64,000 nucleotides of DNA from an uncultured Actinomycetota bacterium (GCA_963777945.1 CAVZSN010000010.1:4473-68472), one strand, 5' to 3'. Positions 7,545-64,000 are shown, numbered from the stretch's first letter. Notes: generated by a model from the letters alone, not told the origin. Numbers and translations are program-made.

Positions 7545-7662
7545 TGTGGTCTTCGGGGTCGGGTGAGATTCCCTACCGGCGGTTACAGCCCGCGAGCCCT
7601 ACGGGGCAGACCAGGTGAGATGCCTGGGCCGACAGTGAAAGTCTGGAAGAGAGAAGACCGGA
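7545..7662 (+). promoter_or_regulatory. FMN riboswitch (RFN element)
   Basis: GGTCTTCGGGGTCGGGTGAGATTCCCTACCGGCGGTTACAGCCCGCGAGC...AGACCAGGTGAGATGCCTGGGCCGACAGTGAAAGTCTGGAAGAGAGAAGACC follows the RFN consensus; P1 is GGTCTTC/GAAGACC; lies directly upstream of ribD. Confidence 0.96.
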
Positions 7663-21980: not shown

Positions 21981-22009
21981 CTAAAGGAATCATGCGCTAC
22001 GCCCGATGA
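21981..22009 (+). promoter_or_regulatory. Putative sigma28/WhiG-type promoter
   Basis: C-TAAA-N16-CCCGATGA versus consensus TAAA-N15/16-GCCGATAA; intergenic, upstream of the RpiR gene. Confidence 0.5.
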
Positions 22010-43318: not shown

Positions 43319-43323
43319 CGCGG

Positions 43324-43474
43324 TGCTCGACCTTGTGCGTGATCTGGCCCAAACTTGAGCCAACACACTACGCTCGGGAGGCATGTTTTCCTGAACGGCG
43401 AGTCGCCAATCAGGGACTGTCACCCACCTGCTTCGGCAGGTTCAAGCGCATGTCAGACACGGCAAGGTGGAGCA
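43324..43474 (+). ncRNA. ssrS: 6S RNA, Firmicute/BsrA-like
   Basis: Closing stem TGCTC-GACCTTGTGCGTGATCTG pairs with CAGACACGGCAAGGTGGAGCA; CTTGAGC pairs with GTTCAAG; central bubble CAACACACTACGCTC; GGGAG...CACCCACCTGC-TTCG-GCAGGTTCAA resembles B. subtilis 6S-1; T-rich tail; downstream of aspS like bsrA. Confidence 0.88.
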
Positions 43475-43498
43475 TTTTTATTTTGGGAAGGGTAGACG

Positions 43499-46845: not shown

Positions 46846-47653
46846 ATGGCCTATGGTGACGGATTGAAGACGATGTCCCAGAGCGAGACCTGCTTGTCCT
46901 GGTCCGCGATCGCAAAGATGCCGCAGCCAGAGAGGAACTGATCACGCGCTATCTGCCGCTGGTACGGAGTCTTGCCCGTCGGTTCGCGTCTCGCGGGCAA
47001 CCGGTCGAGGACCTCATCCAGGTCGGAAGCATCGGTCTGATCAAGGCCATCGACCGGTTCGATCTTGACAGGGGCGTGGAACTCTCCACGTATGCCACCC
47101 CGACCATCCTGGGCGAGATCAAGCGATACTTCCGCGACAAGGGCTGGGCCGTGAAGGTCCCCCGGGCCCTGCAGGACCTCAACACCAGGCTCAACAGGGT
47201 CATGGAGTCACTGACCGTGGAACTGCGTAGGTCTCCGACCATCAGTGAGTTGGCGGGCGCAACGGGGGCGACAGAGGAGGAAGTGGTCGAAGCCCTGGAG
47301 AGCGGGCGGGCCTACAACTCCGTCTCGATCTATCTCCGGCGGAAGTCCGGACGAGGACGAATCCGCAGGCTTGCTGGACTGCCTGGGGATGGAGGAGGAG
47401 GCCTACGAGGTCTTCGAGCAGCGCCGGGTGCTGGCGCCCGCCATGGAACGGCTCGATCCTCGGGAGCGATTCATCCTTCACCTGCGTTTCTTCGAGGGTA
47501 TGACCCAGACCCAGGTGGCGGCGCGGATCGGCATCTCGCAGATGCACGTGTCGCGGCTGATACGGAAATCGATAGAGAATCTCCGTCTAGTACATGGCGG
47601 AAGACGAGTCCCCGGAGCCTGGCGGCGCGGGGGAGAGAGGCGAGGTCTGATTC

Positions 47654-50285: not shown

Positions 50286-50698
50286 GTGCGTGTGCTGGGT
50301 ATAGACGTGGGAGCGAGCCGGACCGGGGTGGCCATCTCGGATCCGTTGGGAGTCACCTGCACGCCGCTGCCGGTGATCCGGGAACGCGATCGGGAGCAGG
50401 CTGCTTCTAAGGGTCGTGGCCCTGGCCGAGGAGCACGGTGCGGGCGAGATGGTGGTGGGGCTGCCGCGCCCGCTTGCAGGAGGGACGAACGCGCAGATGG
50501 ACAGCGGTGATCGCCTTCGCCGAGCGCCTCAGGCAGACGGCTGACGCGATGCCGGTCGTCATGTGGGACGAACGGTTCACGTCCAAACTGGCCAGGACGA
50601 GTCAGCGCGCGAGCGGCGAGCAGGACTCGGTCGCGGCGTGCTATATGTTGCAGGACTATCTTGACTGGCGGTCCGGGCCTAGCTGGAGAGTGATATGA
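50286..50698 (+). CDS. ruvX: Pre-16S rRNA nuclease YqgF / RuvX (indels)
   Basis: VLGIDVGASRTGVAISDPLG, VVGLP, WDERFTS, DSVAACYMLQDYLD. Confidence 0.93.
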
Positions 50699-51826
50699 GC
50701 GACTGGTATTCGGATCTACCACGAGCGGGCGAGAGCTACCCCGTCCAAGAAGAGGAAGCGTCGCTCGGCGAAGGCCTGGGCCACCCGCATCATCGTGGTG
50801 ATCGGCTTCTGTCGCCTTCATGTTCGGCGTCTACACGGTGGTCGACAGAGGGCACGATTGGCTTGCAGGCCAAGGCGAGCGGAAACGACGTCGACCAGTC
50901 TTGCGAGCTCGGTGAAGGTCATCGATCAGTCCGGGCATGACGGCCACGCCAGATCGGCCAGTTGCTCGAGAACAAGGGAGTCGTCTCCTCGGCGGCCGGC
51001 CTTCGTGGACCTGGTCGCATTCCCGAGGAAGCGAGGAGAAGCTCCAGCCCGGCACGTATCAACTTGCCCACCAAGCGCTCAGCTCGTCGCAGTGGTCGCC
51101 AGGCTCGAGACAGGGACGCGCCGCGGCTCCGCACCTTCAAGGTCACCATCCCCGAAGGCCTGGCGGCCAGCCAGGTAGCCTCCCTGCTGGCAAAGGCTGG
51201 TGAGGTCAAGCAGGCCGCCACGTACACCGACTTGGCTCAGCAGCCCGACAAGTTCGTGGTGCCCGAAGATCGGGGGAGACACGCCCAGAGGTCACCACGC
51301 TCGAGGGGCTGCTCTTCCCCGACACGTACGAGTTGATGACCGGGGACGGGCCCGACCGAGCTCATCGGCGCTCAACTGTCGGCCTTCGGCAAGAAGACCG
51401 CCTCGCTCCAGTGGGACAGCTGCGGAGGTCCTTGGACTGTCGCCCTATCAGATCGTCATCGTGGCCTCGATGCTGGAGAAGGAGGCCAACACCCCTGAGG
51501 ACATGGCCAAGGTGGCCGCCGTCATCTACAACCGGCTCAAGAAGAAGATGCGGCTGGACGTCGATGCCACCGTGCGGTACGCACTCGACAAATGGACCGA
51601 ACCGCTCACCGCCGCGGACCTCAAGGTGGATTCTCCGTACAACACTCGGGTGGTCAAGGGACTGCCGCCGGCGCCCATCGCCAACCCCGGGGTGGCCGCA
51701 CTTGAAGCTGCTCTGGAACCGGCGGACGTCGACTATCTGTACTATCTCACCGACAAGGACGGCAAGACGTACTTCACCGCCTCGTACGACGAGTTCGTAA
51801 AGATGAAGAAGGACCTGCTTCAGTAG
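50695..51826 (+). CDS. mltG: Endolytic transglycosylase MltG (indels)
   Basis: LQPGTY, VTIPEGL, LEGLLFPDTY, ASMLEKE, VIYNRL, SPYNT, GLPPAPIANPG, YLYY. Confidence 0.93.
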
Positions 51827-51942
51827 CTCTCGGGTCCCTGACGGACCTGGTGCGCCAGCTTCTTACCTTGGTTTGAGACGAAACCGCCTCCGAGCGGTAG
51901 TCTGCACAGTAGCAGCAGGCAACCGCAGCGGAGGTGGCGTGG

Positions 51943-52810
51943 ATGGGGGCGAACCAGAGCATCAGTAGCCGGACCGGCGTGGTGGGTGTGCTGGGCCACC
52001 CGGTCGGCCATTCGCTTTCTCCTCGCATGCACAACGCCGCCTTCCGGCCGCAGGGCTCGACCTGGTCTATCTGGCTTTCGACGTGCCTCCGGAGCGCCTG
52101 CCCGCCGCGATGCGCGGGCTCCTGCGCCCTCGGGTTTCGGGGCGCCAACGTGACGATCCCTCACAAGGAGGCCGTCCTCGCCCTCCTCGACGACGTGGAT
52201 GCCGGCGGCCGGCGCGTATCGGGTCGGTCAACACGGTGGTCAACGACGAGGGCCGGCTCGTCGGGTACAACACCGATACGAGCGGTTTCGCTGGCGGCGC
52301 TGCGCGGTCTGCGGCCCGAGGGAGCTCGGCGGGCTGACCTGCTTCGTGGCCGGGGCCGGAGGGGCGGCGCGCGCGGTCGTCGCCGCCCTTGATCGACGAC
52401 GGGGCCCGCGAGATCCGCGTCTACAACCGCACGCCCGAACGCGCCGTCGCGCTCTGCTCGGAGGCCGCCTGGGGCGTAGCGCCGCTGCGTTGCCGTTCCC
52501 GAACACGAAGTGTTCGGCGGCGGCGCGCGAGAGCCAGACCTCATCGTGAACGCCACCTCGGTGGGGCTGACCCCATCCGTCAAGGAGTCCGCCATTCCTG
52601 TCGATATTCTCCACAGTCATCACATCGTGATGGACCTGGTCTACGGCCGGGTCCCACGATGCTGGTGAGAGAGGCGAAAGCGCGAGGTGCTACCGCGATA
52701 GACGGCAAGGAGATGCTCGTGATGCAGGCTGCGAGTCGTACGAGCTCTGGACAGGCCTGCAGGCGCCTGTTGACGTCATGCGGACGCAGCATCGTCGATG
52801 GGAGAGGTGA
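51943..52810 (+). CDS. aroE: Shikimate dehydrogenase (indels)
   Basis: GHPVGHSLSPRMHNAAF, GANVTIPHKE, GSVNTV, GYNTD, GAGGAARA, IVNATSVG, DLVY, DGKEMLVMQA. Confidence 0.94.
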
Positions 52811-52811
52811 G

Positions 52812-54564
52812 ATGCCGTCCATGCAGAGCGACCAGAGAGGAGAATGCTGCAGCGGAGGCTGGTAGGCCGGCCGACCGGCGAGGTGCTCGTCGACATGGGT
52901 CTGCTGACCCAGGAGCAGGTCGACCAGGCGGCGGCCGAGCAGCAGGTCACCCATCAGCGCATCGGGGAGATAGCTCTTTCCAAGGGCTGGGTGACCAAGG
53001 GCGATCTCATGCAGGCGCTGGCCCGCCGCCTCGGCGTGCAAGTACCTCGATCTGAGCCGTCACCCGCATCGACCCGGTGGCCCTCGAGCTGATCTCCGAG
53101 CGCGACGCTCGCCGGTACTCTGCGATCCCGGTCAGCTTCGTGGACGAGCACACCGTGCTCGTGGCGATGGCCGACCCCTCGAACATCGTCGCCATCGACG
53201 ACCTGCGCATCCTGACCGGCTTCGATATCGAACCAGGACTGGCCAGCAACGAAGAGATCGTCGAGATGCTCAGCAAGCTGCGCTCTGCCGGACGACCAGC
53301 TCTCGCGAGGACTTCGAAGCAAGGATCGGGGCCGGCGAGGAGGACGTCCAGTCGTCGACGACATGCGCGACATCCGCGAGCAGGTGGAGGCCGCGCCGGT
53401 CGTCAAGCTGGTCAACGGCGTGCTCGCGCGCGCGGCGGACGAAGGCGCGTCGGACATCCACTTCGAGCCCCAGGCCAGGGATCTGCTGATCCGCTTCCGG
53501 CACGACGGCGTGCTCCACGAGATCATGACCATTCCCAAGACGACTGCAGGCCGGGGTCATCTCTCGTCTGAAGATCATGGCCGACCTCGACATCGCTGAG
53601 CGGCGGATCCCCCAGGACGGGCGCATCGGCCTCACCGTGGGCGGCCGGCCCATCGACATGCGGGTCGCCTCGCTGCCCACCGTCTACGGCGAGAAGGTCG
53701 TCATCCGCCTCCTGGACCGCTCCAACGTGATGCTGCGCCTCGAGGAACTCGGGCTTCTCCGAGCAGCGCTCTCAACCGCTACCGCCGCTCGTTCCAGAAG
53801 CCATACGGCGCCATCCTGGTCACCGGTCCGACCGGCTCCGGGCAAGTCCACCACGCTGTACGCCACTCTCAACATCCTCAACACGCGGGACAAGAACATC
53901 ATCACGGTCGAGGACCCGGTGGAATACCGGCTGGCAGGCATCAACCAGGTACAGATCAACCCCAAGGCGGGTCTGACCTTCGCGTCCGGCCTGAGATCGA
54001 TCCTGCGCTGCGACCCCGACATCGTCATGGTCGGCGAGGTGCGGGACAAGGAGACCGCCCAGATCGCCATCGAGTCGGCCCTCACCGGCCACCTGGTGCT
54101 GTCCACCCTGCACACCAACGACGCTCCCGGGCGCTCTCACCCGGCTCACCGAGATGGGTGTCGAGCCCTTCCTGACCGCGTCGGCCGTGGACTGCGTGAT
54201 CGCCCAGAGGCTGGTCCGCAAGCTCTGCGAGTACTGCCGGGAGCCGTACACACCTACCCGGGACATCCTTCGTCAGGTGGGCTTCACCAGCGACGCGATC
54301 GACGAGCAGGGACGAGATCACCCTCTACCGCGCCGTCGGTTGTCCTCGCTGCAACAACACCGGCTACAAGGGCCGCATGGGCGATCTACGAGATCATGCT
54401 GGTGACCGAGGCGATAGAAAGGCTCATCGTCGAGCGCAAGAGTGCCGATGAGATAGGGCGAGTAGCCACGAGCGGAGGGCATGATGTCTCTTCGCCAGGA
54501 CGGCCTTGAGCGCGTGCTCCAGGGGATGACCAGCATCGAGGAGATCTCCCGGGTCATCGTGTGA
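52812..54564 (+). CDS. pilB: Type IV pilus assembly ATPase PilB (GspE/PulE family) with MshEN-like N-terminus (indels)
   Basis: [67 protein letters not shown], CxxC zinc motifs. Confidence 0.94.
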
Positions 54565-54603
54565 CGCGGGAGATACGGACAGACGGACAGGGGAGAGCAG
54601 ACG

Positions 54604-55677
54604 ATGGATATAGGCGAGATCCTGAGAGAAGTGGTCCAGACGCAAGCATCGGACCTTCATCTGGCGGTGGGACTGCCGCCGGTCGTGCGTGTCGACGGCC
54701 ATCTGCGGAACCTCGAAGGCTACCCCGAACTGACGGCCAACGAGGCTCGCGAGCTCATCTACAGCATCCTGAACCAGGACCAGCGTCAGAAGCTCGAGAC
54801 CGACTGGGAGGTCGACCTCTCCTACTCTCTGTACGGCCAAGCCCGCTTCCGGGTCAACGCGTTCTTCCACAAGGGGACGCTCGCGGCGGCCTTCCGGCTC
54901 ATCCCGGTGAACATCAAGACGATCGACGAACTGGCGCTTCCCAAGGTGCTGCACACCTTCTGCCACAAGCCGCGCGGATTCGTGCTGGTCACCGGGCCGA
55001 CCGGCTCGGGCAAGTCGACGACCCTGGCCGCCATCATCGACGAGATCAACGAGACGCAGAGCGGACCACATCGTCACCATCGAGGACCCCATCGAGTTCC
55101 TGCACACCCACAAGCGCTGCGTGGTGAACCAGCGAGAGGTGGGGAGCGACACGAAGGGCTTTCCGCAGTCGCTCTGCGCTCCGCGCTGCGGCAGGACCCC
55201 GACGTCATCCTGATCGGCGAGATGCGCGACCTGGAGACCATCCAGATCGCTCTCGACCGCGGCCGAGACCGGCCACCTGGTGTTCGCCACGCTTCACACG
55301 CAGGACTGCCCGCAGACCATCGACCGCATCATCGACGTCTTCCCGCCTCACCAGCAGGAGCAGATCCGGGTGCAGATAGCCGCCACCCTCGAAGGCGTCG
55401 TCACGCAGCAGCTCCTGCCCAAGACTTCAGGAGCAGGACGGGTGGCCGCCTGCGAAGTCCTGATATCCACGCCTGCGGCCAAGAACCTCATCCGCGAAGG
55501 GCAAGACCCACCAGCTCTACACGGTCATGCAGACCGGCGGCCAGCACGGCATGCAGACGATGAACTCCTGCCTCGCCGACCTGGTTCAAGCGGAGCCACA
55601 TCAGCCGGGAGCTGGCGCTCCGGCGCTCGTCGGTGCCCGACGAGCTCGAGCGCCTGCTGCTGTCCGGCGCAGCCTGA
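54604..55677 (+). CDS. pilT: Type IV pilus retraction ATPase PilT (indels)
   Basis: [77 protein letters not shown]. Confidence 0.95.
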
Positions 55678-55740
55678 CTCGGACTCCCGGTGGGAGTGGG
55701 GGAGAGTGTGGATCGCCGGCGGGCAGCGACCTGCGACTCG

Positions 55741-55770
55741 CTATAGGCCCGGCGCTCCCGGGCCGATATA
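55741..55770 (+). promoter_or_regulatory. Putative sigma28/WhiG-type promoter for pilC
   Basis: C-TATA-N16-GCCGATAT in the pilT-pilC gap, about 53 nt upstream of the pilC start. Confidence 0.6.
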
Positions 55771-55822
55771 GAAGCAGAAGGACTTATCACGATCAGCACA
55801 GCGAACGAGGAGCTGAAGCGGA

Positions 55823-57042
55823 GTGGGAACTTTCACGTATACGGCTAAGAAGGAGCGCGGAGCCCTGTTCACCGGTGAAGCGATGGGCGACTCCAAGGCG
55901 GCGGTCGTCGCCGAACTGCGCCGGAAGGGCCTCACGGTCGTCAGTCTCGAGGAGAAGCGGGGCGTGCTCGACCTCAAGACCATGCTGGAGAACAGCAAGC
56001 GCATCAGCGTGCGCGACAAGGCGGTCTTCGCCCGGCAGTTCGCCACCATGATCAATTCGGGCCTCGCCGTGCTGCGCGCGCTGTACGTCCTCGAGGAGCA
56101 GACCCAGAACCCGCGGCTTCAAGAAGATCATCAAGGCTGGTGCGCGACGACGTCGAAGCGGGCATGCCGCTCTCCGACGCCATGGCCAAGCATCCGGCCG
56201 CCTTCGACCGGCTCTACGTCGCTATGGTGCGAGCCGGCGAGGCGAGCGGCGCGCTCGACCAGACGCTCCTCCGCCTGGCCACTCAGCTGGAGAAGCAGGA
56301 CAGCCTGCGCCGGTCCATCAAGTCGGCCATGACCTATCCGATCCTGATCGCGGTCTTCGCCATCATGGTCATGATCGGCATGCTGCTCTTCATCATCCCG
56401 ATCTTCGCCAACATGTACAAGGACCTGGGCGGGCAACTGCCCGAGCCTGACCCGGATGATGATGGGCGTCAGCAACATGCTGAAGGGCTACTGGTTCATC
56501 ATCTTCCCGGTGATCATCCTGATCGTGTGGGCCTTGATCCGGCTCAAGAACACCGAGCAGGGCCGCAGAGCCTGGGACCGCTTCAAGCTCAAGCTGCCCA
56601 TGAAGCTCGGGCCGCATCATCCAGAAGATCGCCGTGGCCCGCTTCAGCCGGACCCTCGCTACGCTGGTCGGCTCCGGCGTGCCCATCCTGCAGGCCATCG
56701 AGATCACCGGCAAGACCTCCGGCAACACGGTCATCGAAGAAGCCATGGTGGACGTCAAGGAGAGCGTCCGCAGCGGCGAGCCCATCGCCAAGCCTCTGAT
56801 GCGCGTCGCGGTGTTTCCGCCGATGGTCACGCACATGATCTCCATCGGGGAGGAGACCGGCGCGCTCGACTCCATGCTCAACAAGATCGCCGACTTCTAC
56901 GAAGACGAAGTCGACGCCGCCGTGAAGTCGCTCACGTCGATCATCGAGCCGATCATGATGATGTTCGTCGGCGGTCTGGTCGGGCGTCATCGTCATCTCC
57001 ATGTACCTGCCGATGTTCAACATGATGAACCTGGTCAAGTAG
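55823..57042 (+). CDS. pilC: Type IV pilus platform protein PilC (GspF family; indels)
   Basis: FARQFATMINSGL, MVRAGEASGAL, SAMTYP, RFSRTLATL..SGVPIL, IGEETGALDSML.KIADFYE, IEP, MYLPMF. Confidence 0.95.
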
Positions 57043-57069
57043 GACCGAGCTCGCACCGTCGGTTAGGCA

Positions 57070-57094
57070 GCGGCGGCTATCACGGGGCCGCCGC
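57070..57094. terminator. GC hairpin after pilC, possible terminator
   Basis: GCGGCGGC-N9-GCCGCCGC; no U-tract. Confidence 0.35.
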
Positions 57095-57161
57095 CTCGTC
57101 GCCGGGTCCGGCGGCTGCGCCGGCCGGAGTCATCCACGGTCTCCCTCGCGTCTATGTCGCA

Positions 57162-57189
57162 ATGCACGATAATGTGCATTATGTAAACT
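57162..57189 (+). other. dif: dif site (XerC/XerD chromosome dimer resolution site)
   Basis: ATGCACGATAA-TGTGCA-TTATGTAAACT has the 11-6-11 layout; right arm matches the B. subtilis dif arm TTATGTAAACT; AT-rich island at the point where gene orientation converges. Confidence 0.9.
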
Positions 57190-57256
57190 AGCACGATGCC
57201 GACGCACAGCTTGCGCGGCTCGGCCCCTCCCCGGCGGCTCCAGCGCGCGGTGAGTG

Positions 57257-57782
57257 CTAGACGGGGTAGCTCAGCAGGCTGAAGACGTCGTAGCCCTGCG
57301 AGCTTGTCGCGCCCGTCGAAGCTCGGTGAGCTCGATGATGAAGGCGAGTCCGGCCACGACACCGCCCGCCTCTTCGACCAGCTGGATCTTCGCCTTGGCA
57401 GTGCCACCGGTCGCCAAGCAGGTCGTCGTGGATGAGGACTCTCTGTCCCGGCTTGATCGCGTCGGCGTGCATCTCGAGCACGTCGGTGCCGTATTCGAGG
57501 GCGTACTCGCAGCGCTTGACCTTCCAGGGCAGCTTGCCGGGCTTGCGCGCGGCGGCGAAACCTACCCCAGTGGCGTAGGCCAGCGCCGCTCCCAGGATGA
57601 AACCTCGCGCCTCCGCCCCCAGCACCAGGTCGACTCTGCCTGCTCCTCGGGCGTACTCCGCCAGCTGAATCCACGGCGTATCTGAGGGCCTGCGGCTCCT
57701 GCAGCAGCGGCATGATGTCGTGAAAGAGGATGCCTTCCTTCGGGAAGCCCGGGATATGGCGGATGTACTTGTCGAGATCCAT
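57257..57782 (-). CDS. apt: Adenine phosphoribosyltransferase (indels)
   Basis: [47 protein letters not shown]. Confidence 0.96.
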
Positions 57783-57832
57783 GGTGCTCCTTGATCAGGA
57801 ATAGACGGACGCTGACAGGCGTCACGAAGCGT

Positions 57833-58548
57833 CTAGAGCAGCTTGCGCAGCTCCTTGTAGAGCAGCAGACTGCATCAACTGCGACAGGAGCGACCCCAGG
57901 TCCTCCACCATCTTCTCGCCGTACTCGCGCTTGTCGGCGTGCGTCGACCGCAGCGACGGCGTGGTGATCTGCTCCACAAGCGCCGCCTCCCGCTCGACCG
58001 ACGAGCTGAGCAGGCGAAGATTGCGGGGCTCCACCCCGAACCGGACCAGCAGCTGGCAGATGCGGGCGATCTCGAGGTCGCTCTCGGTGAAGACCGCTCC
58101 CTGCTGGCCCGGCCGATCGATAAGCCGATACTCGACGAGCAGGCGCAAGAAGGCCGCGTCGATGCCGGCATTCTCGCAGACCTCTTCCTGTGTATACACG
58201 GCGTCTTCACGCTTGAGGCCGCGGCTCGCCGCCCAGGCGGCCGGATGCGGCAGAGCGGCTGGCCGAGCATCCCGGGCGCAGGGCGCGTCGACGCGCTCGC
58301 GGATGACCTCGAGCGGCAGGTACTCGTCTCGCTGCAGGGTGAGGATCGTGCGCAGGCGCCGGACGTCGGCCGCCGCTGTACTTGCGGTAGCGTCCCGGGG
58401 TCCTGCTCGGGGCCAGGAGGCCCCGGTCCTCGAGGTAGCGGACCTTGGTGATGCTGAGGTCCGGGAAGTCCGACTTGCAGTTGATCGACCACCTGGCCGA
58501 TCGTCGAGCAGGTGCACCGTCGTCTTTCATAGTCGGTCCGGCCCTCAC
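57833..58548 (-). CDS. MerR family regulator (FtsR/Rv1828-like; indels)
   Basis: TIGQVVDQL, FPDLSITKVRYLEDRGLL.P.RT.GRYRKY, LQRDEYLPLEVIRE, FGVEPRNLR; follows an FHA gene as in other actinobacteria. Confidence 0.88.
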
Positions 58549-59028
58549 AGTTCACCGGTGATCTCGTCGGTCTGCTCCAGGAAGGCCAGCTTGAACTTGC
58601 CTATCTGCAGCTCGTCGCCATCGAGGAGCCTGTGGCGCTCGATCCGCTTGCGGTTGACGTAGGTGCCGTTGAGGCTGTTGAGGTCCTCCACCCAGAAACC
58701 CGCCTTCATCGCGGAGGACCCGGGCGTGATGGCGCGAGACGGTGACGTCGTCCAGGAAGAGGTCGCTGTGCGGGCTGCGCCCGATGGTGAGCACGTCGAC
58801 GTCGAGGTCGATGGTCTCCCCTTCGCGGCCGCCGCCGGAGCGGATGAGCAGGACGTGACCTGCCGTCCCCGACAGCGTCAAGCGCTCCTGCGCCGGTGTC
58901 CTCGCGCTCGCCCGCGAAGTACGTGATGGTCGTCTCTTGAGGTCGACGGCTATCAGCCGGCTGCCACAGCGCCGGCAGTAGTTCGAGTCTTCGGTGTTGT
59001 CGAAGCTACAGGTCGGGCAGTCGAGCAT
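58545..59028 (-). CDS. Zinc-ribbon + FHA domain protein (GarA/OdhI-like; indels)
   Basis: CPTC...CRRCG, ETTITY in a shifted frame, IGRSPHSDLFLDDVTVSRHHA, DLNSLNGTYVN, ELQIGKFKL. Confidence 0.9.
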
Positions 59029-59367
59029 CGGTCGTCCCTTCCCGGCTGAGGTGTCGCTGGTGAGTGCTCTCCCCACTCGCTTCGGCTCCTCCGACCGACT
59101 CGCCGTAGTCGGCGAACTGCCTGCGGATCTGCTCCTCGATGCCCTTGATCACTCGCGGGTCCTCGAAGATGCGGCTCGCGCGCCAGGTCGTCGGAATGCG
59201 CGACCACGTACGGGTCGTCGCAGGATGTCGTCGACGTGCCGGCCGCTCTCGACCTGACGTACGATGTAGCGGACCAGGCGCTCCTCGCGCACATCGACGG
59301 AGAGGTCACGAAACCGCTCTCGATACCTCGGGCTGGCGGCTCGCTCTTCTGGCTCACGGTCGACCAC
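59006..59367 (-). CDS. Hypothetical helical protein (indels; end approximate)
   Basis: VREERLVRYIVRQVESGRHVDDIL.DPYVVAH...RVIKGIEEQIRRQF; fills the gap between the RsiG-like and FHA genes. Confidence 0.6.
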
Positions 59368-59380
59368 TCACTTGCTGGGT

Positions 59381-59645
59381 TCAGCCGGCTCGCTGCCGCT
59401 TGCCACTGAGGATGTCGGTGAGCGCCGCCACATCGCCGCATCCAGCACCAGCCCGCCCCCGCGCTGTGCTTGTCGCGGAGCCGCCTGACCATCTCGGCCC
59501 GGACGATGTCGATCTCGCCGTGGAGAAGGCGTCTGCGCTTCGAGAGCTCCCGCTCCTCGGCCGCAAGCGGATCGGCCAGCTCGCGCAGCTCCTCGTCGCT
59601 GTACGACTGGATGTTGATCAGACGTTCGAAAGAAGTGTCGTCCAT
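59381..59645 (-). CDS. rsiG: Single-motif RsiG-like c-di-GMP-binding anti-sigma factor (indel near the 3' end)
   Basis: SDEELRELAD.LAAEERELSKRRRLLHGEIDIVRAE matches E-x3-S-x2-R-x3-(Q/H)-x3-D; C-terminal helix DVAALTDILSGK. Confidence 0.8.
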
Positions 59646-59661
59646 GGTGCTCCACACCCTT

Positions 59662-59698
59662 ACTATAGAGGTTCCCCCCGGAACCTTCAACCTGAGGT
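59662..59698 (-). promoter_or_regulatory. Sigma-A promoter of the rsiG-FHA-merR unit with overlapping dyads
   Basis: Minus strand TTGAAG-N17-TATAGT; dyads AGGTTCC-N4-GGAACCT (59669-59686) and ACCT-N8-AGGT (59683-59698). Confidence 0.6.
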
Positions 59699-59741
59699 GG
59701 AGATACGCACACGTGCGGCCGACGCGGCTACGCGGAAGCGG

Positions 59742-60125
59742 TTACTCTTCTTCGCTGAGGAGCTCCTCGTACTCCTCGGCGCTCATGAGATCGTCGATCT
59801 CGGAGGGATCCGCGAGGCGGACCTTGATGAGCCAGCCATCCTCGAAGGGGCTCTCGTTGATGAGCTCGGGAGCGTCGACGACTTCTTCGTTGACTTCGAC
59901 GACCGAACCGCTCAGCGGTGCGTAGACATCGGAGACGGCCTTCACCGATTCGACCTCGGCGTAGGGCGTCCCTGCCGTGACGTCCGCGCCTACCTCGGGG
60001 AGTTCGATGTACACGATGTCACCGAGTGTCTCCTGGGCGTAGCTGGTGAGACCAAAGACTGCGGTATCACCCTCGACCCGGGCCCAGTCGTGCTCCCTGT
60101 GGTACTTGAGGTTCTTGGGGTTCAC
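59742..60125 (-). CDS. gcvH: Glycine cleavage system H protein
   Basis: YHREHDW, AQETLGDIVYIELP, VESVKAVSDVYAPLSG (lipoyl-Lys), NESPFEDGWL; intact ORF. Confidence 0.97.
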   Translation of the reverse strand: MNPKNLKYHREHDWARVEGDTAVFGLTSYAQETLGDIVYIELPEVGADVTAGTPYAEVESVKAVSDVYAPLSGSVVEVNEEVVDAPELINESPFEDGWLIKVRLADPSEIDDLMSAEEYEELLSEEE

Positions 60126-60261
60126 ATGCGCTCCTTTCTCGCCACCATCGGCTGGCCGTCATGATAGCACAGCGGTTTTTGTCGCTCCGGACGGACGGAC
60201 GACACGCACGGGAGCGGCTTGTATACTCAGTGGCGTGATCCGCGCACAAGGAGGATGAGCG

Positions 60262-60760
60262 ATGCCAAGCCGCAGAGGACTGGTCATCAGCGACGAGCAG
60301 ATGAGGCTGATCGACGGCCGTGCTCGAGAAGCTGCGGATGGTGTCCGGCTCGCAGTTCGCCGCGCTCATCTCCACCAGCGGCCAGCCTATCGCCGTCTCC
60401 CCGCCGGACGTCGCGCTCCGACACGCTGTCTCTGGCGCTCTCGCCGCCAGCTCCTTCGCCGCCACCCGGCAGCTGGCCCAGATACTCAGCGAGCGCGAGT
60501 TCACGCTGCTCGTTCCACGAGGGCAAGGAAGCCAATCTCCACGTGATGCAGGTGACCGACCAGATCCTGCTTCTCATCACCTTCGGCCGCGATACCCAGG
60601 TGGGCCGGGTCCGTCTCTACACCAGCCGGGCGCTCGAGGTCCTCAAGCCGGCTCTCGAGACTGCCGAAAATACCAGTGGAGACGACCAGCGTGGTCGATC
60701 GCGAGTACTCACGCGAGAGTCGGCGCGGCGATAGACGGTCTGTTCTCCGGACAGAGGTGA
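60262..60760 (+). CDS. mglB: Roadblock/LC7 protein MglB (GAP for MglA; indels)
   Basis: LISTSGQPI, DTLSLA, FAATRQLAQILSEREF.LLFHEG, LLITF...QVGRVRL, C-terminal AIDGLFS; RBS AGGAGG. Confidence 0.85.
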
Positions 60761-60787
60761 CGCAGTAGCGGCAGTGGAGAACGACCT

Positions 60788-61374
60788 GTGGCACTGATCA
60801 ACCTCGCCGCGCGAGAGATCAACTACAAGATCGTCTACTACGGCTGCGGTCTGTGTGGCAAGACCACGAACATCCAGTACATCCACCGCCGCGTCAATCC
60901 CGCTGCGCGCGGACGCCTGGTCAGCATCGCCACCGAAGAGGAGCGCACGCTCTACTTCGACTTCCTGCCGCTGTCGGTGGGCACCGTCAAGGGTCTGCGC
61001 ACCCGGTTCCATCTCTATACCGTGCCCGGGCAGTCCTTCTACAACGCCTCGCGCAAGCTGGTGCTGCAGGGCATCGACGGCGTGGTGTTCGTGGCCGACA
61101 GCCAGATCTCCCGGCTGGACGAGAACGTCGACAGCTACCTCAACCTCTGGGACAACCTGCGGTCGCAGGGCGAGGATCTGAGCAGGCTGGGCATGGTGCT
61201 GCAGATGAACAAGCGCGACCTGGGCGACGATCTTCTCGGTGGCCGACCTGACCGAACTGCTCAACCACACCGGCTCGCCGGTGATCGAGGCCTGCGCCCT
61301 CAGCGGCGTCGGGCGTGTTCGAGACCCTCAAGACCGTCTGCAAGCAGGTGATCGCGAAGAGCACCGAGGCCTAG
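60788..61374 (+). CDS. mglA: Small Ras-like GTPase MglA (indels near the 3' end)
   Basis: [75 protein letters not shown]. Confidence 0.92.
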
Positions 61375-61401
61375 CTCGCGACCCGGTGCGTCGCCTCGCC
61401 G

Positions 61402-63910
61402 CTAGTCCGCCCCTCGGCGACGACTTCCGCAGTATCTCCCGGTACTTGTCGGCCAGCTCAGCCGGCCCGCGCGTCGTCCCCCGCTTCGGCGTAGACGTGG
61501 AACAGCGGCTCCTCGGCATCGGGAAGCACCAGGGCCCACTCCGCGTGGTCGAGGAACACCTTGATGCCGTCGACGAGCGAGACCCGGCCATCGTGCAGCT
61601 TCTCCGTCATGCGGCGCATCACGGTACCCTTGAGTTCCCAGGGGCAGTCCGACCTGCAGATGGACCACGTGGGCCACCGGCAGCGGCGCGACCAGCTGCG
61701 ACAGCGGCGCATCGGAGGTGGAGACCAGCTCCAGCACCTTGCCCAGAGCGTAGAGGCCGTCCAGGGAGGGCAGGACCGCCGGGTAGATGTAGCCTCCGTC
61801 GGTGCTGGCGGCGAAGATGGTGTTCGGACGGGTCGCCTCGGCCATCAGGGCAGCCTTGGAGTACTTGGTGCGGCGGATGCTGACGCCGGTGGAGGCGACC
61901 ACCTGCTCGCCGAGCCGGGTGGCATGCAGCGGCAGGGCCGCCACTCCCGCGCCGGCCTCGCGGGCGGCGTGCTGAAGCAGCAGGAGCAGCAGGGCCGAAT
62001 CGGGGATCAGCCGGCCCTTCTCGTCGACCACGTAGAGGTATTCCGCTCCCGGATCGAGGATGGCCCCCAGGTCGGCCTCCATGGCCCGGACCATCTCCCC
62101 CACCCGCGCGGCCGCGGCCGGCAGGCTCTCGCCGAGCGTGAAGCGCGAGCGGCTCCGGGAGAAGGTGTTGAGGGCGATCGTCTCCACCCCAAGCTTGTCC
62201 AGCGTGGCCGGGAAGAAGAAGGCCGGCGCCGAGAGCGAGTAGTCGAGCACCAGCCGGGGCTGCCGCCCCGGATGGCCACGGTGTTCCAGTTCTCGAGCAG
62301 CGAGTTGGTGTAGGTCTCGATGACCCGGGGCGGATAGACGACCTGGCCCATCTCTTCGAAGGCGGCCCGCCGGAAGTCCTCGCGGAAGTAGTGGTTCTCG
62401 ATGGCCCGCTCCCGCTTGCCGTCCAGGGGCACACCCGGCGCCTCGGAGAAGAGGATCTCGATGTGCTCGGGGTTCTCGAGGCTCATCTGCACGTGGATGC
62501 CGCCGACCGCGTTGCCGCTCTTGATGTCGAAGCGGTTGACGGCGAGCGGCGCCGTGGTGAGGTCGCGGACGTTCACCCCGGTGGAGTTGAGGCCGCTGAT
62601 GATGGCCCGCTTGAAGACGCGGCAGGCCTGGTGGGTGTCGCGGCTGGTGGTGACGTAGGAGCCCTTGCTGATGAGCGTGCCGTAGGACATGGCCAGGCGC
62701 ATGGCCATCTCGGGAGTGACGTCGACGTTGGCCAGGCCGCGCACTCCGTTGCGCCCGAAAAGGGTGCTGGGCCCCGCGTCTCCCAGACGATCGACGAGCG
62801 GACGGTCGAGCCCGGCTCGATGTTCTTGAAGCGGGTAGATCTTGACGTTGTTGGCCACCACGGCGTTGCGGCCGACGATCGAGCGGTCGCCGACCACGGC
62901 GCCCTCGGCGATGTGCGCGTTCTCGTGCACCTCCACCCCGTCCACAGCACCGCGCCCGTCGACGACGGCCCCGGAGGCCACGTAGACGTTCTGCGCCCAG
63001 GACCGAGCCGCCGATCTGCGCGCCGGTCCGCACCACGGTGTTGTCGCCCAGCACGGTGTGCGAGAGGATCCGGGCGCCCGGGTCGATGCGGACGTTCTCG
63101 CCGATGACGGCCGGGCCCTCGACGTCGTCGAGGCTCTCGAGCGACGGCGCCCTTGCCCACCCAGATGTTGCCGCGCAGCCGGACGCCCGGCGGAGTCAGG
63201 CGGATCTTGCCGTCGAGCGCGTCGCGGTTGGCCTGCAGGTACTGCTCGAGGCTGCCGACGTCCTGCCAGTAGCCGTCGCAGACCATGCCGTAGAGCGGCT
63301 TGTGCATGTCGAACAGCTTGGGGAACAGGTCGTGGCTGAAGTCGTAGGGCTGCCCCTCGGGGATGTGGTCGAAGACCTCGGGCTCGATCACGTAGATGCC
63401 GGTGTTGACCGTGTCGGAGAAGACCTGGCCCCAGCCCGGCTTCTCCAGGAAGCGCTGGATGCGGCCCTCGTCGTCGACGATGACCACTCCGAACTCGAGC
63501 GGGTTCTCCACGCTCTTGAGGGCGATGGTGACCATCGCCTCGCGCTGCTTGTGGAAGTCGATCACCTTGGTGAGGTCGAAGTCGGTGAGCGCGTCGCCGC
63601 TGATGACCAGGAAGGTGTCGTCGAGAAGGTCCTTGGCCAGCCGGATGGAGCCGGCGGTGCCCGCCGGCGTCTCCTCCACCGTGTAGTCGATGTGCATGCC
63701 CAGGCTGCTGCCGTCGCCGAAGTAGTTGCGGATGAGCCGGGGCAGGAAGGCCAGGGTCATGACCACTTCGTTGATGCCGTGCCGCTGGACCAGTTCGAGG
63801 ATGTGCTGGATGGTGGGCTTGTTGACGACCGGCACCATCGGCTTGGGCTGGTTGGAGGTCAGCGGGCGAAGTCGAGTGCCCTGACCACCGGCCATGACGA
63901 CTGCCTTCAC
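61402..63910 (-). CDS. Mannose-1-phosphate guanylyltransferase / phosphomannomutase-like fusion (indels)
   Basis: [46 protein letters not shown], hexapeptide repeats, [19 protein letters not shown]...W.LVLPD. Confidence 0.9.
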
Positions 63911-64000
63911 GGGAGCCTCCTGGTCGCGGATGACGACGTCACAGCGAGACACTACCCGAAAGAGTAGCAGGGAACGCAGCAGGCCGGAACAGTGCAAGGC

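Follow-up and report, generated by a model that had tools for sequence, protein, structure and literature searches.

Within about 9 kb of a 64,000-nucleotide stretch of DNA from an uncultured Actinomycetota bacterium lie the type IV pilus genes pilB, pilT and pilC, a dif site, the anti-sigma factor gene rsiG and an mglB-mglA pair, and the question raised by this locus is whether these elements belong to one system of pilus control or merely share a neighbourhood. The whole stretch analysed, hereafter the window, corresponds to G000:C10:4473-68472, where G000 is the source genome and C10 one of its contigs, and the organism is a soil-type actinobacterium of the class Thermoleophilia. An initial annotation of window positions 52812-61374 had proposed three layers of control, namely transcription through RsiG, WhiG and cyclic di-GMP (c-di-GMP), motor allostery through MshEN-like repeats in PilB, and pole switching by MglA and MglB, which together might allow reversible twitching. 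Control of the pilus genes by WhiG and RsiG was found to be probable. The logic by which RsiG, WhiG and c-di-GMP govern pili is already known from Rubrobacter, and its extension here to Thermoleophilia looks real from the sequences compared. For the MglA/MglB pair (MglAB), identity and distribution were established, and an action on pili may be suggested by analogy.

Almost all genes in the window were split into pieces lying in different frames. Among 100 non-triplet indels relative to the nearest relative, 85 were insertions in the window and 15 were deletions, the insertions occurring about once per 100 bp and being mostly single bases outside homopolymers. Frame breaks were equally frequent in the housekeeping genes alaS, manC and apt, and indels also occurred in intergenic DNA, and the frameshifts were therefore judged to be assembly errors rather than gene decay. 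The source genome has a completeness score of 59% despite comprising 2.57 Mb in 11 contigs, and at the orthologous locus L007, which is Illumina-based, the genes are intact. As the frameshifts were held to be assembly errors, the window genes were read through their intact L007 orthologues, which were located by tblastn and named by Pfam/NCBIfam. The insertion-dominated error profile of the window assembly is itself unusual. A search with an MglA fragment returned 393 confirmed relatives, and the counts out of 80 loci given below rest on the best 80 of these, which are metagenome-assembled genomes labelled Thermoleophilia, Gaiellales, Actinomycetes, Actinomycetota and, in one case, just 'bacterium'; the locus of the closest relative is about 86% identical across window positions 50615-63990. 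In public sequencing runs, at most 9% of the words making up the pilC-dif stretch were present in any one run, a result that permits no inference on habitat or errors.

Read in this manner, all of the parts named in the initial annotation, including the MshEN repeats of PilB and the single motif of RsiG, were recovered where it had placed them:

52812/52847-54561, plus strand: pilB, extension ATPase with tandem N-terminal MshEN motifs, frameshifted (tblastn pieces in three frames)
54604-55674, plus strand: pilT, retraction ATPase, frameshifted (orthologue TIGR01420, 500.9 bits, cut-off 319.1)
55823-57042, plus strand: pilC, platform protein, four frame changes (orthologue with two T2SSF domains, 231.6 bits)
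57162-57189, plus strand: dif, consisting of XerC arm, 6-bp centre and XerD arm (28-mer with no second match in the genome when up to 6 mismatches are allowed)
59442-59654, minus strand: rsiG, single-motif anti-sigma factor (PF22802, 55.2 bits in window DNA, cut-off 27)
60271-60751, plus strand: mglB, Roadblock/LC7 GTPase-activating protein, frameshifted (orthologue PF03259, 51 bits, over the cut-off)
60788-61371, plus strand: mglA, Group-1 small GTPase, directly after mglB, with two frame changes near the 3' end

The rsiG gene is the only copy in the source genome, and its L007 orthologue encodes a protein of 98 amino acids scoring 58.2 bits against PF22802. In both the window and L007 the motif E-x3-S-x2-R-x3-H-x3-D occurs once, within a single long helix, and the protein aligns with the RsiG structures of Rubrobacter radiotolerans (7LQ2/7LQ3/7LQ4) with the motif residues matched one by one; the published motif permits Q or H at the H position (PMC8325347). 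In R. radiotolerans, a (RsiG)2-(c-di-GMP)2-WhiG switch controls the type IV pilus cluster, and of the 12 mapped promoters three lie in that cluster and five at diguanylate cyclase or phosphodiesterase (DGC/PDE) genes (PMC8325347). RsiG homologues are reported there for three cultured Thermoleophilia, with no regulon described in the text (PMC8325347).

The transcriptional part of the proposal called for a WhiG-like sigma factor elsewhere in the genome, and an orthologue was found at C6:8808-9488. It is broken into four frameshifted pieces (79.5, 71.7, 53.8 and 26.3 bits) which sum to about 231 bits against a TIGR02479 cut-off of 189.6, no single piece reaching the cut-off, and it is intact in five of five relatives, where it scores 278-285 bits against the same cut-off. 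WhiG is the top NCBIfam name for this protein, and the gene is located between xerC and rpsB. As flhA was found in none of five genomes, the WhiG-type sigma-28 factor does not serve flagella. From knowledge of the family, RsiG would be expected to bind WhiG together with c-di-GMP. A sigma factor gene within the window itself (46938-47586), 5 kb upstream of pilB, was considered and rejected, as it belongs to the SigB/F/G family and is not WhiG.

Candidate promoters were defined by a -35 element T(A/C)AA, a spacer of 15-17 nucleotides and a -10 element GCCGATAA. A loose genome scan with up to two mismatches gave 111 sites, mostly noise. With the strict motif T[AC]AA-N15-16-G[CT]CGATA, 12 genome sites were obtained, against 0-3 for each of six composition-matched control motifs, and these 12 include sites before pilB (52580-52607) and pilD (C10:104974) as well as before three c-di-GMP-turnover genes, which encode two GGDEF proteins, one of them of CHASE4-HAMP-GGDEF architecture, and a response regulator whose HD domain is of the HD-GYP type. 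Within the window, two candidate promoters serve the pilus motor genes:

52580-52607, plus strand: candidate PpilB, TCAAGGAG..GTCGATAT, within the 3' end of aroE (strict motif)
55742-55769, plus strand: candidate PpilC, TATA-N16-GCCGATAT, in the pilT-pilC spacer (two-mismatch match)

Of 22 loci, the window among them, 21 retain the candidate PpilB, with invariant -35 and -10 elements and a variable spacer, and 18 of the 20 orthologous loci compared for PpilC have a CGATA box 50-62 nucleotides 5' of the gene. Among relatives with accurate assemblies, TAAAG-N-GCCGATA precedes both the major pilin gene and a divergent pilin operon in all four, and it precedes pilD in two of the three relatives whose pilD region was examined. 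With WhiG present, flhA not found in the five genomes, and promoters of this type at pilus and c-di-GMP genes, the transcription layer was upheld by comparative evidence. Two further sigma-28-type promoters had also been placed upstream; the one at 52580-52607 stood, but that at 54424-54451, upstream of pilT, is conserved pilB coding sequence which reads GATGA and not GATA, and is probably no promoter. A site at 60643-60670 upstream of mglA (TCAA-N16-GCCGAAAA) was likewise set aside, lying inside mglB, being inseparable from coding constraint and missing in other families. A further two-mismatch sigma-28-like site, TAAAGG...CCCGATGA, is located at window positions 21982-22009.

The remaining pilus machine was largely found outside the window. 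The genes pilD and pilMNO, which had been expected elsewhere in the genome, are present (pilM at C10:102995-104053), and in an intact relative (L098) their order is pilD-pilM-pilN-pilO, followed by a gene for a 199-residue protein and then by aroC-aroKB-aroQ-efp-nusB. The 199-residue protein is a Ser/Thr-rich membrane protein matching no family. In the source genome, pilD-pilMNO-aroC (G000:C10:~101500-105000) lies about 43 kb from aroE-pilBTC (window 51972-57042), on the opposite strand and across dif, and an ancestral aro/pil cluster therefore appears to have been split around dif. A second copy of pilT is present in many relatives. No secretin was found in any of 13 genomes, which is consistent with a cell without an outer membrane. 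Pilins, whose presence had been put forward as a test of the proposal, were found in four of four other relatives and eight of eight congeners, but not in the organism's own assembly. In one congener, pilT and the pilin cluster share a contig and are separated by about 70 kb, and the equivalent point here would fall past the start of C10; the missing pilins were thus attributed to the contig end and not to absence.

For the second layer, the PilB orthologue (T2SSE PF00437, 484 bits) was found to score 64.6 bits against MshEN PF05157, above its cut-off, and 58.8 bits against NF053729, a model of an MshE-related c-di-GMP motif with a cut-off of 38. Its N-terminus has the arrangement seen in MshE and Clostridium PilB2, two 24-residue motifs set 5 residues apart. 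In canonical MshEN, motif I starts with R-L-G, the Arg being a contact residue, and motif II ends in Q. Going by the family, the chances that PilB binds c-di-GMP are about even; binding is plausible and not assured because motif I lacks the contact Arg. Of the proposed MshEN layer, the family assignment and the spacing stood, but the canonical contact residues were not matched.

With regard to the third layer, the window MglA aligned over residues 1-189 with Myxococcus xanthus MglA (232 bits) and scored 219 bits against Thermus thermophilus MglA. Group-1 MglA proteins are defined by TVPGQ, an intrinsic Arg beside the G2 Thr and an adjacent mglB (PMC4316618), and all three features are seen here: a TVPGQ G3 motif, an Arg next to the G2 Thr, and mglB immediately upstream. 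The MglB orthologue scored 67.8 bits against the Thermus-type equivalog NF052242, below its cut-off of 200. Distribution was surveyed in 121 genomes of the class and 301 of the phylum. MglA was found in 57 of the class genomes, the three families that carry it scoring 18/20, 19/20 and 19/20 and the other seven 0/60, and in 6 of the phylum genomes, all from those same three families; pilT was present in 98 and rsiG in 110 of the 121. The initial annotation had suggested profiling mglAB against pilT across Thermoleophilia, and pilT was indeed found in 56 of the 57 MglA-positive genomes, the exception being 88% complete and in 230 contigs. This nesting, however, reflects three related families and is therefore not independent evidence, and it carries little weight.

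The three families differ in what precedes mglB. The third family has an invariant GCCGATA box (TGCCGATA) in the rsiG-mglB spacer of 16 of 16 loci (L113, L114, L162-L175), with no conserved -35 element; in some of these loci the box pairs with a downstream TATCGGC, and the box may act as a promoter or form part of an RNA structure. In the second family, GACGATAC is found in most loci and a CGATA box in 46 of 51. Because GCCGATA and GACGATAC boxes survive 5' of mglB in two families, mglBA may once have been WhiG-dependent. On this is built a bolder version of events, in which a horizontally acquired MglAB was wired into the c-di-GMP/RsiG/WhiG circuit in one Thermoleophilia clade and, with RsiG, would decide when and at which pole pili form; this is considered unlikely. 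That MglAB acts on pili at all, as argued by analogy, is possible, at somewhat less than even odds.

The reading preferred here, to which a probability of roughly 0.6 is given with its MglAB part worded as 'most likely', is as follows. The locus would be the dif- and terminus-proximal neighbourhood of a non-flagellated, secretin-less Thermoleophilia bacterium, in which a single WhiG is predicted to read sigma-28-type promoters of pilB-pilT-pilC, of pilD-pilMNO and, in relatives, of pilin operons. WhiG would be kept inactive by a c-di-GMP-bound homodimer of single-motif RsiG, as demonstrated experimentally in Rubrobacter, rsiG being the first gene of a class-wide rsiG-(x98)-fha-ftsR-apt operon 2.4 kb from pilC. 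Like promoters at the gene for the HD-GYP-type response regulator and at two or three GGDEF genes may close a c-di-GMP feedback, and the tandem MshEN motifs of PilB may sense c-di-GMP directly. Group-1 MglA/MglB, a lineage-specific insertion between manC and rsiG, most likely marks the piliation pole, by analogy with Myxococcus and Thermus. The gene identities, synteny, promoter conservation and phyletic distribution on which this reading draws are observed.

A number of observations weigh against it. The candidate PpilB sits inside the aroE coding region, and the -35 element of PpilC is off-consensus. PilB scores 657 bits against the PilB equivalog TIGR02538, slightly below the cut-off of 675.65, and, unlike the MshEN receptors described above, it opens motif I with P-T-G in place of R-L-G and closes motif II with R in place of Q. 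No pilin was found in the organism's own assembly by Pfam N_methyl, TIGR02532 or a six-frame motif scan, nor by tblastn with pilin open reading frames from eight loci of four relatives. At least two reading frames are needed for 11 of 13 L007 reference proteins when aligned to the window by tblastn, and the 100 non-triplet indels fall within only 8.6 kb (window 52800-61400). With regard to MglAB, the distribution follows clades (the three families), and 42 pilT-positive genomes of the class are without MglA. Of 28 loci in the window's family, 25 have CATGATAGC at the site of the mglB box and only two have CGATA, which gives no ground for claiming that WhiG controls mglBA in the genome under study. 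No cheW was found in this genome or in three of four relatives (it was found in the fourth), so that no Frz-like reversal input is visible. The rsiG-mglBA neighbourhood is explained by a single old insertion between manC and rsiG-fha-ftsR-apt, and later insertions have come between rsiG and mglB, namely gcvH in the window's family only and DUF4388 (PATAN) in the second family, with none in the third. What stands of the proposed pole-switching layer is a genuine Group-1 MglA, from which pole switching may be inferred; the sigma-28 promoter at mglBA in this lineage and the cheW gene were not found, and 'reversible twitching' is unproven.

The alternative that survives best is that of a chance neighbourhood, in which the WhiG/RsiG-pilus regulon is real and MglAB, unrelated to pili, merely landed in the terminus-proximal backbone; its task would then be another polarity or cell-cycle role, for example with the FHA/FtsR division regulators or in terminus or septum events. 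The other genes read in this part of the window through their L007 orthologues, those of the backbone among them, are:

51972-52807, plus strand: aroE (tblastn)
57260-57782, minus strand: apt, adenine phosphoribosyltransferase
57870-58470, minus strand: ftsR, MerR-type regulator (orthologue NF050798, 207.7 bits, cut-off 150)
58560-59028, minus strand: fha, zinc-ribbon and FHA protein, OdhI/GarA-like but below the equivalog cut-off (Pfam/NCBIfam on the orthologue)
59063-59337, minus strand: x98, a protein of 98 amino acids, in the rsiG operon
59742-60125, minus strand: gcvH, housekeeping
61401-63925, minus strand: manC-like fusion of sugar-1-phosphate nucleotidyltransferase and phosphomannomutase, at the edge of the backbone

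All ten loci compared from six Thermoleophilia families (L109-L118) have an rsiG-(x98)-fha-ftsR(-apt) operon headed by rsiG (window 57260-59654), whether or not mglBA is present, and one family without MglA has manC immediately next to rsiG. It follows that mglBA is one insertion between manC and rsiG, made in the ancestor of the three families. Among the 80 loci, rsiG lies beside mglBA in 77, from three families, the other three being cut by contig ends, and pilBTC is adjacent to rsiG/mglBA in only 22. All 22 related loci carrying pilC have the dif site between that gene and apt, many further loci have a related site close to apt, and on the contig the cumulative GC skew reaches its maximum at 65-70 kb, about 4-9 kb from dif (61.6 kb). 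The caution that the parts are not one operon, and that their proximity may be partly coincidental, was thus well placed: the 9-kb cluster is not a unit, and the clustering is largely that of a stable backbone next to dif. The mglB promoter missing in the window's lineage, the missing cheW and the pilT-positive genomes without MglA are further points in favour of chance. This alternative is nevertheless regarded as rather unlikely, given that the known characterised Group-1 MglAs, as described in PMC4316618 and PMC7519303, act on motility or pili, that all but one of the MglA carriers have pilT, and that the sister families keep their GCCGATA or GACGATAC boxes 5' of mglB. One sister family, in addition, keeps a PATAN/DUF4388 gene beside mglB; this gene lies between rsiG and mglB in 50 loci, e.g. 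L049:8666-9265(-), with a weak match in one more, and no homologue of its product was found in the window's genome.

A second alternative concerns what the pili do. They could serve adhesion or DNA uptake and not surface motility, with MglAB setting their location without a reversal cycle, a role that has been discussed for Thermus. The missing cheW, and with it any Frz-like reversal input, would fit this, as would the score of the window MglA against its Thermus counterpart. The retraction ATPase gene pilT is, however, present, and in two copies in many relatives, and motility and uptake are indistinguishable from sequence; this alternative is held to be improbable. A third alternative, genuine frameshifts in a decaying remnant whose pilus, RsiG and MglAB genes have become pseudogenes, is hardly credible, since, although most reference genes are broken and no pilin was found in the assembly, the housekeeping genes alaS, manC and apt are equally broken, the indels are insertion-dominated and extend into intergenic DNA, the completeness score is low for an assembly of this size, and L007 is intact.

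The preferred reading may be set beside the systems from which it is drawn. The likeness to Rubrobacter lies in a single-motif RsiG with identical motif residues, a WhiG orthologue present in a unicellular actinobacterium without flagella, and promoters of the type TAAA/TCAA-N15-16-GCCGATAA before pilus and DGC/PDE genes. Unlike Rubrobacter, the window genome belongs to another class, has its pilus genes split around dif (aroE-pilBTC / pilD-MNO-aroC), and has rsiG at the head of an fha-ftsR operon with Group-1 mglBA adjoining. The rsiG operon places a c-di-GMP anti-sigma gene beside a cell-division regulator. In the text of PMC8325347, from which the words FHA, MerR and synteny are absent, this operon context is not mentioned. 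The x98 protein of the operon gave no Pfam/NCBIfam match, and a protein atlas gave just unnamed actinobacterial clusters. The likeness to M. xanthus, in which MglA and MglB act on type IVa pili via SgmX (PMC7519303), lies in a Group-1 MglA encoded right after a Roadblock/LC7 MglB and in the presence of both PilB and PilT; unlike M. xanthus, the window organism is a monoderm without secretin, and no cheW or Frz-like system was found in its own genome.

A survey of WhiG1 and WhiG2 across Actinomycetota placed predicted WhiG promoters before genes for pili, c-di-GMP turnover and regulators, with the same promoter consensus as in the present genome scan, and names pilus targets in Cellulomonadaceae, Cryptosporangiaceae, Sanguibacteraceae, Rubrobacteraceae and Jonesiaceae (bioRxiv 10.64898/2026.01.14.699351). 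The words Thermoleophilia and MglA are absent from its main text, although its supplementary tables might list such genomes. Group-1 MglA was reported from many phyla in a 2014 survey whose main list does not include Actinobacteria, and whose supplements might differ (PMC4316618). A full-text literature search for MglA together with Thermoleophilia returned no paper. The present comparison therefore suggests that an RsiG-(c-di-GMP)-WhiG-pilus regulon reaches uncultured soil and sediment Thermoleophilia, for which concrete candidate promoters are now available, and places Myxococcus-type MglA/MglB, within the sampled Actinomycetota, in three Thermoleophilia families only. If MglAB steers pili, control of pilus polarity would become accessible in a single-membrane, secretin-less cell; if MglAB should in truth be wired into the WhiG circuit, it would have no precedent as an MglAB polarity system in Actinomycetota, nor as one coupled to a second-messenger switch of sigma and anti-sigma factors.

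Apart from these questions, several regulatory elements were observed outside the pilus locus. Neither the window nor the pilin loci of its own family yielded a c-di-GMP-I riboswitch. In a sister family, two genomes carry c-di-GMP-I aptamers (RF01051, with one RF03167 GGC variant) 5' of pilin genes:

L120:2310-2390(-): c-di-GMP-I aptamer
L127:1720-1800(-): c-di-GMP-I aptamer
L128:498-572(+): c-di-GMP-I aptamer
L128:1307-1381(+): c-di-GMP-I aptamer

The sole perfect sigma-28 site in the genome, TAAA-N15-GCCGATAA, is located outside the window (G000:C4:237518-237625; L097:4519-4625), upstream of gatC. It precedes a unit of about 65 nucleotides that combines a hairpin with an invariant, CU-rich single-stranded segment resembling an anti-Shine-Dalgarno sequence, a GC-rich terminator and a run of U. 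Of 25 other genomes of the family, 14 have this unit, and in 13 of these it comes with the TAAAG/GCCGATA promoter boxes. The unit gave no Rfam match and no covariation, the latter because conservation is too high, and it is regarded as a candidate WhiG-dependent small RNA. Together with the pilin riboswitches of the sister family, this candidate points to several stacked c-di-GMP inputs on pili in Thermoleophilia.

Sigma-28-type sites were also seen before genes for an extracytoplasmic function (ECF) sigma factor, an NlpC/P60 PcsB-like hydrolase, a secreted protein with a CE2_N-like domain and a major facilitator superfamily (MFS) transporter, the positions of these sites being:

G000:C3:26116: sigma-28-type site
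C4:306812: sigma-28-type site
C9:273747: sigma-28-type site
C10:394681: sigma-28-type site

Within the window itself, a flavin mononucleotide (FMN) riboswitch is present at 7545-7662 (110 bits) and a 6S RNA at 43322-43477 (68.7 bits).

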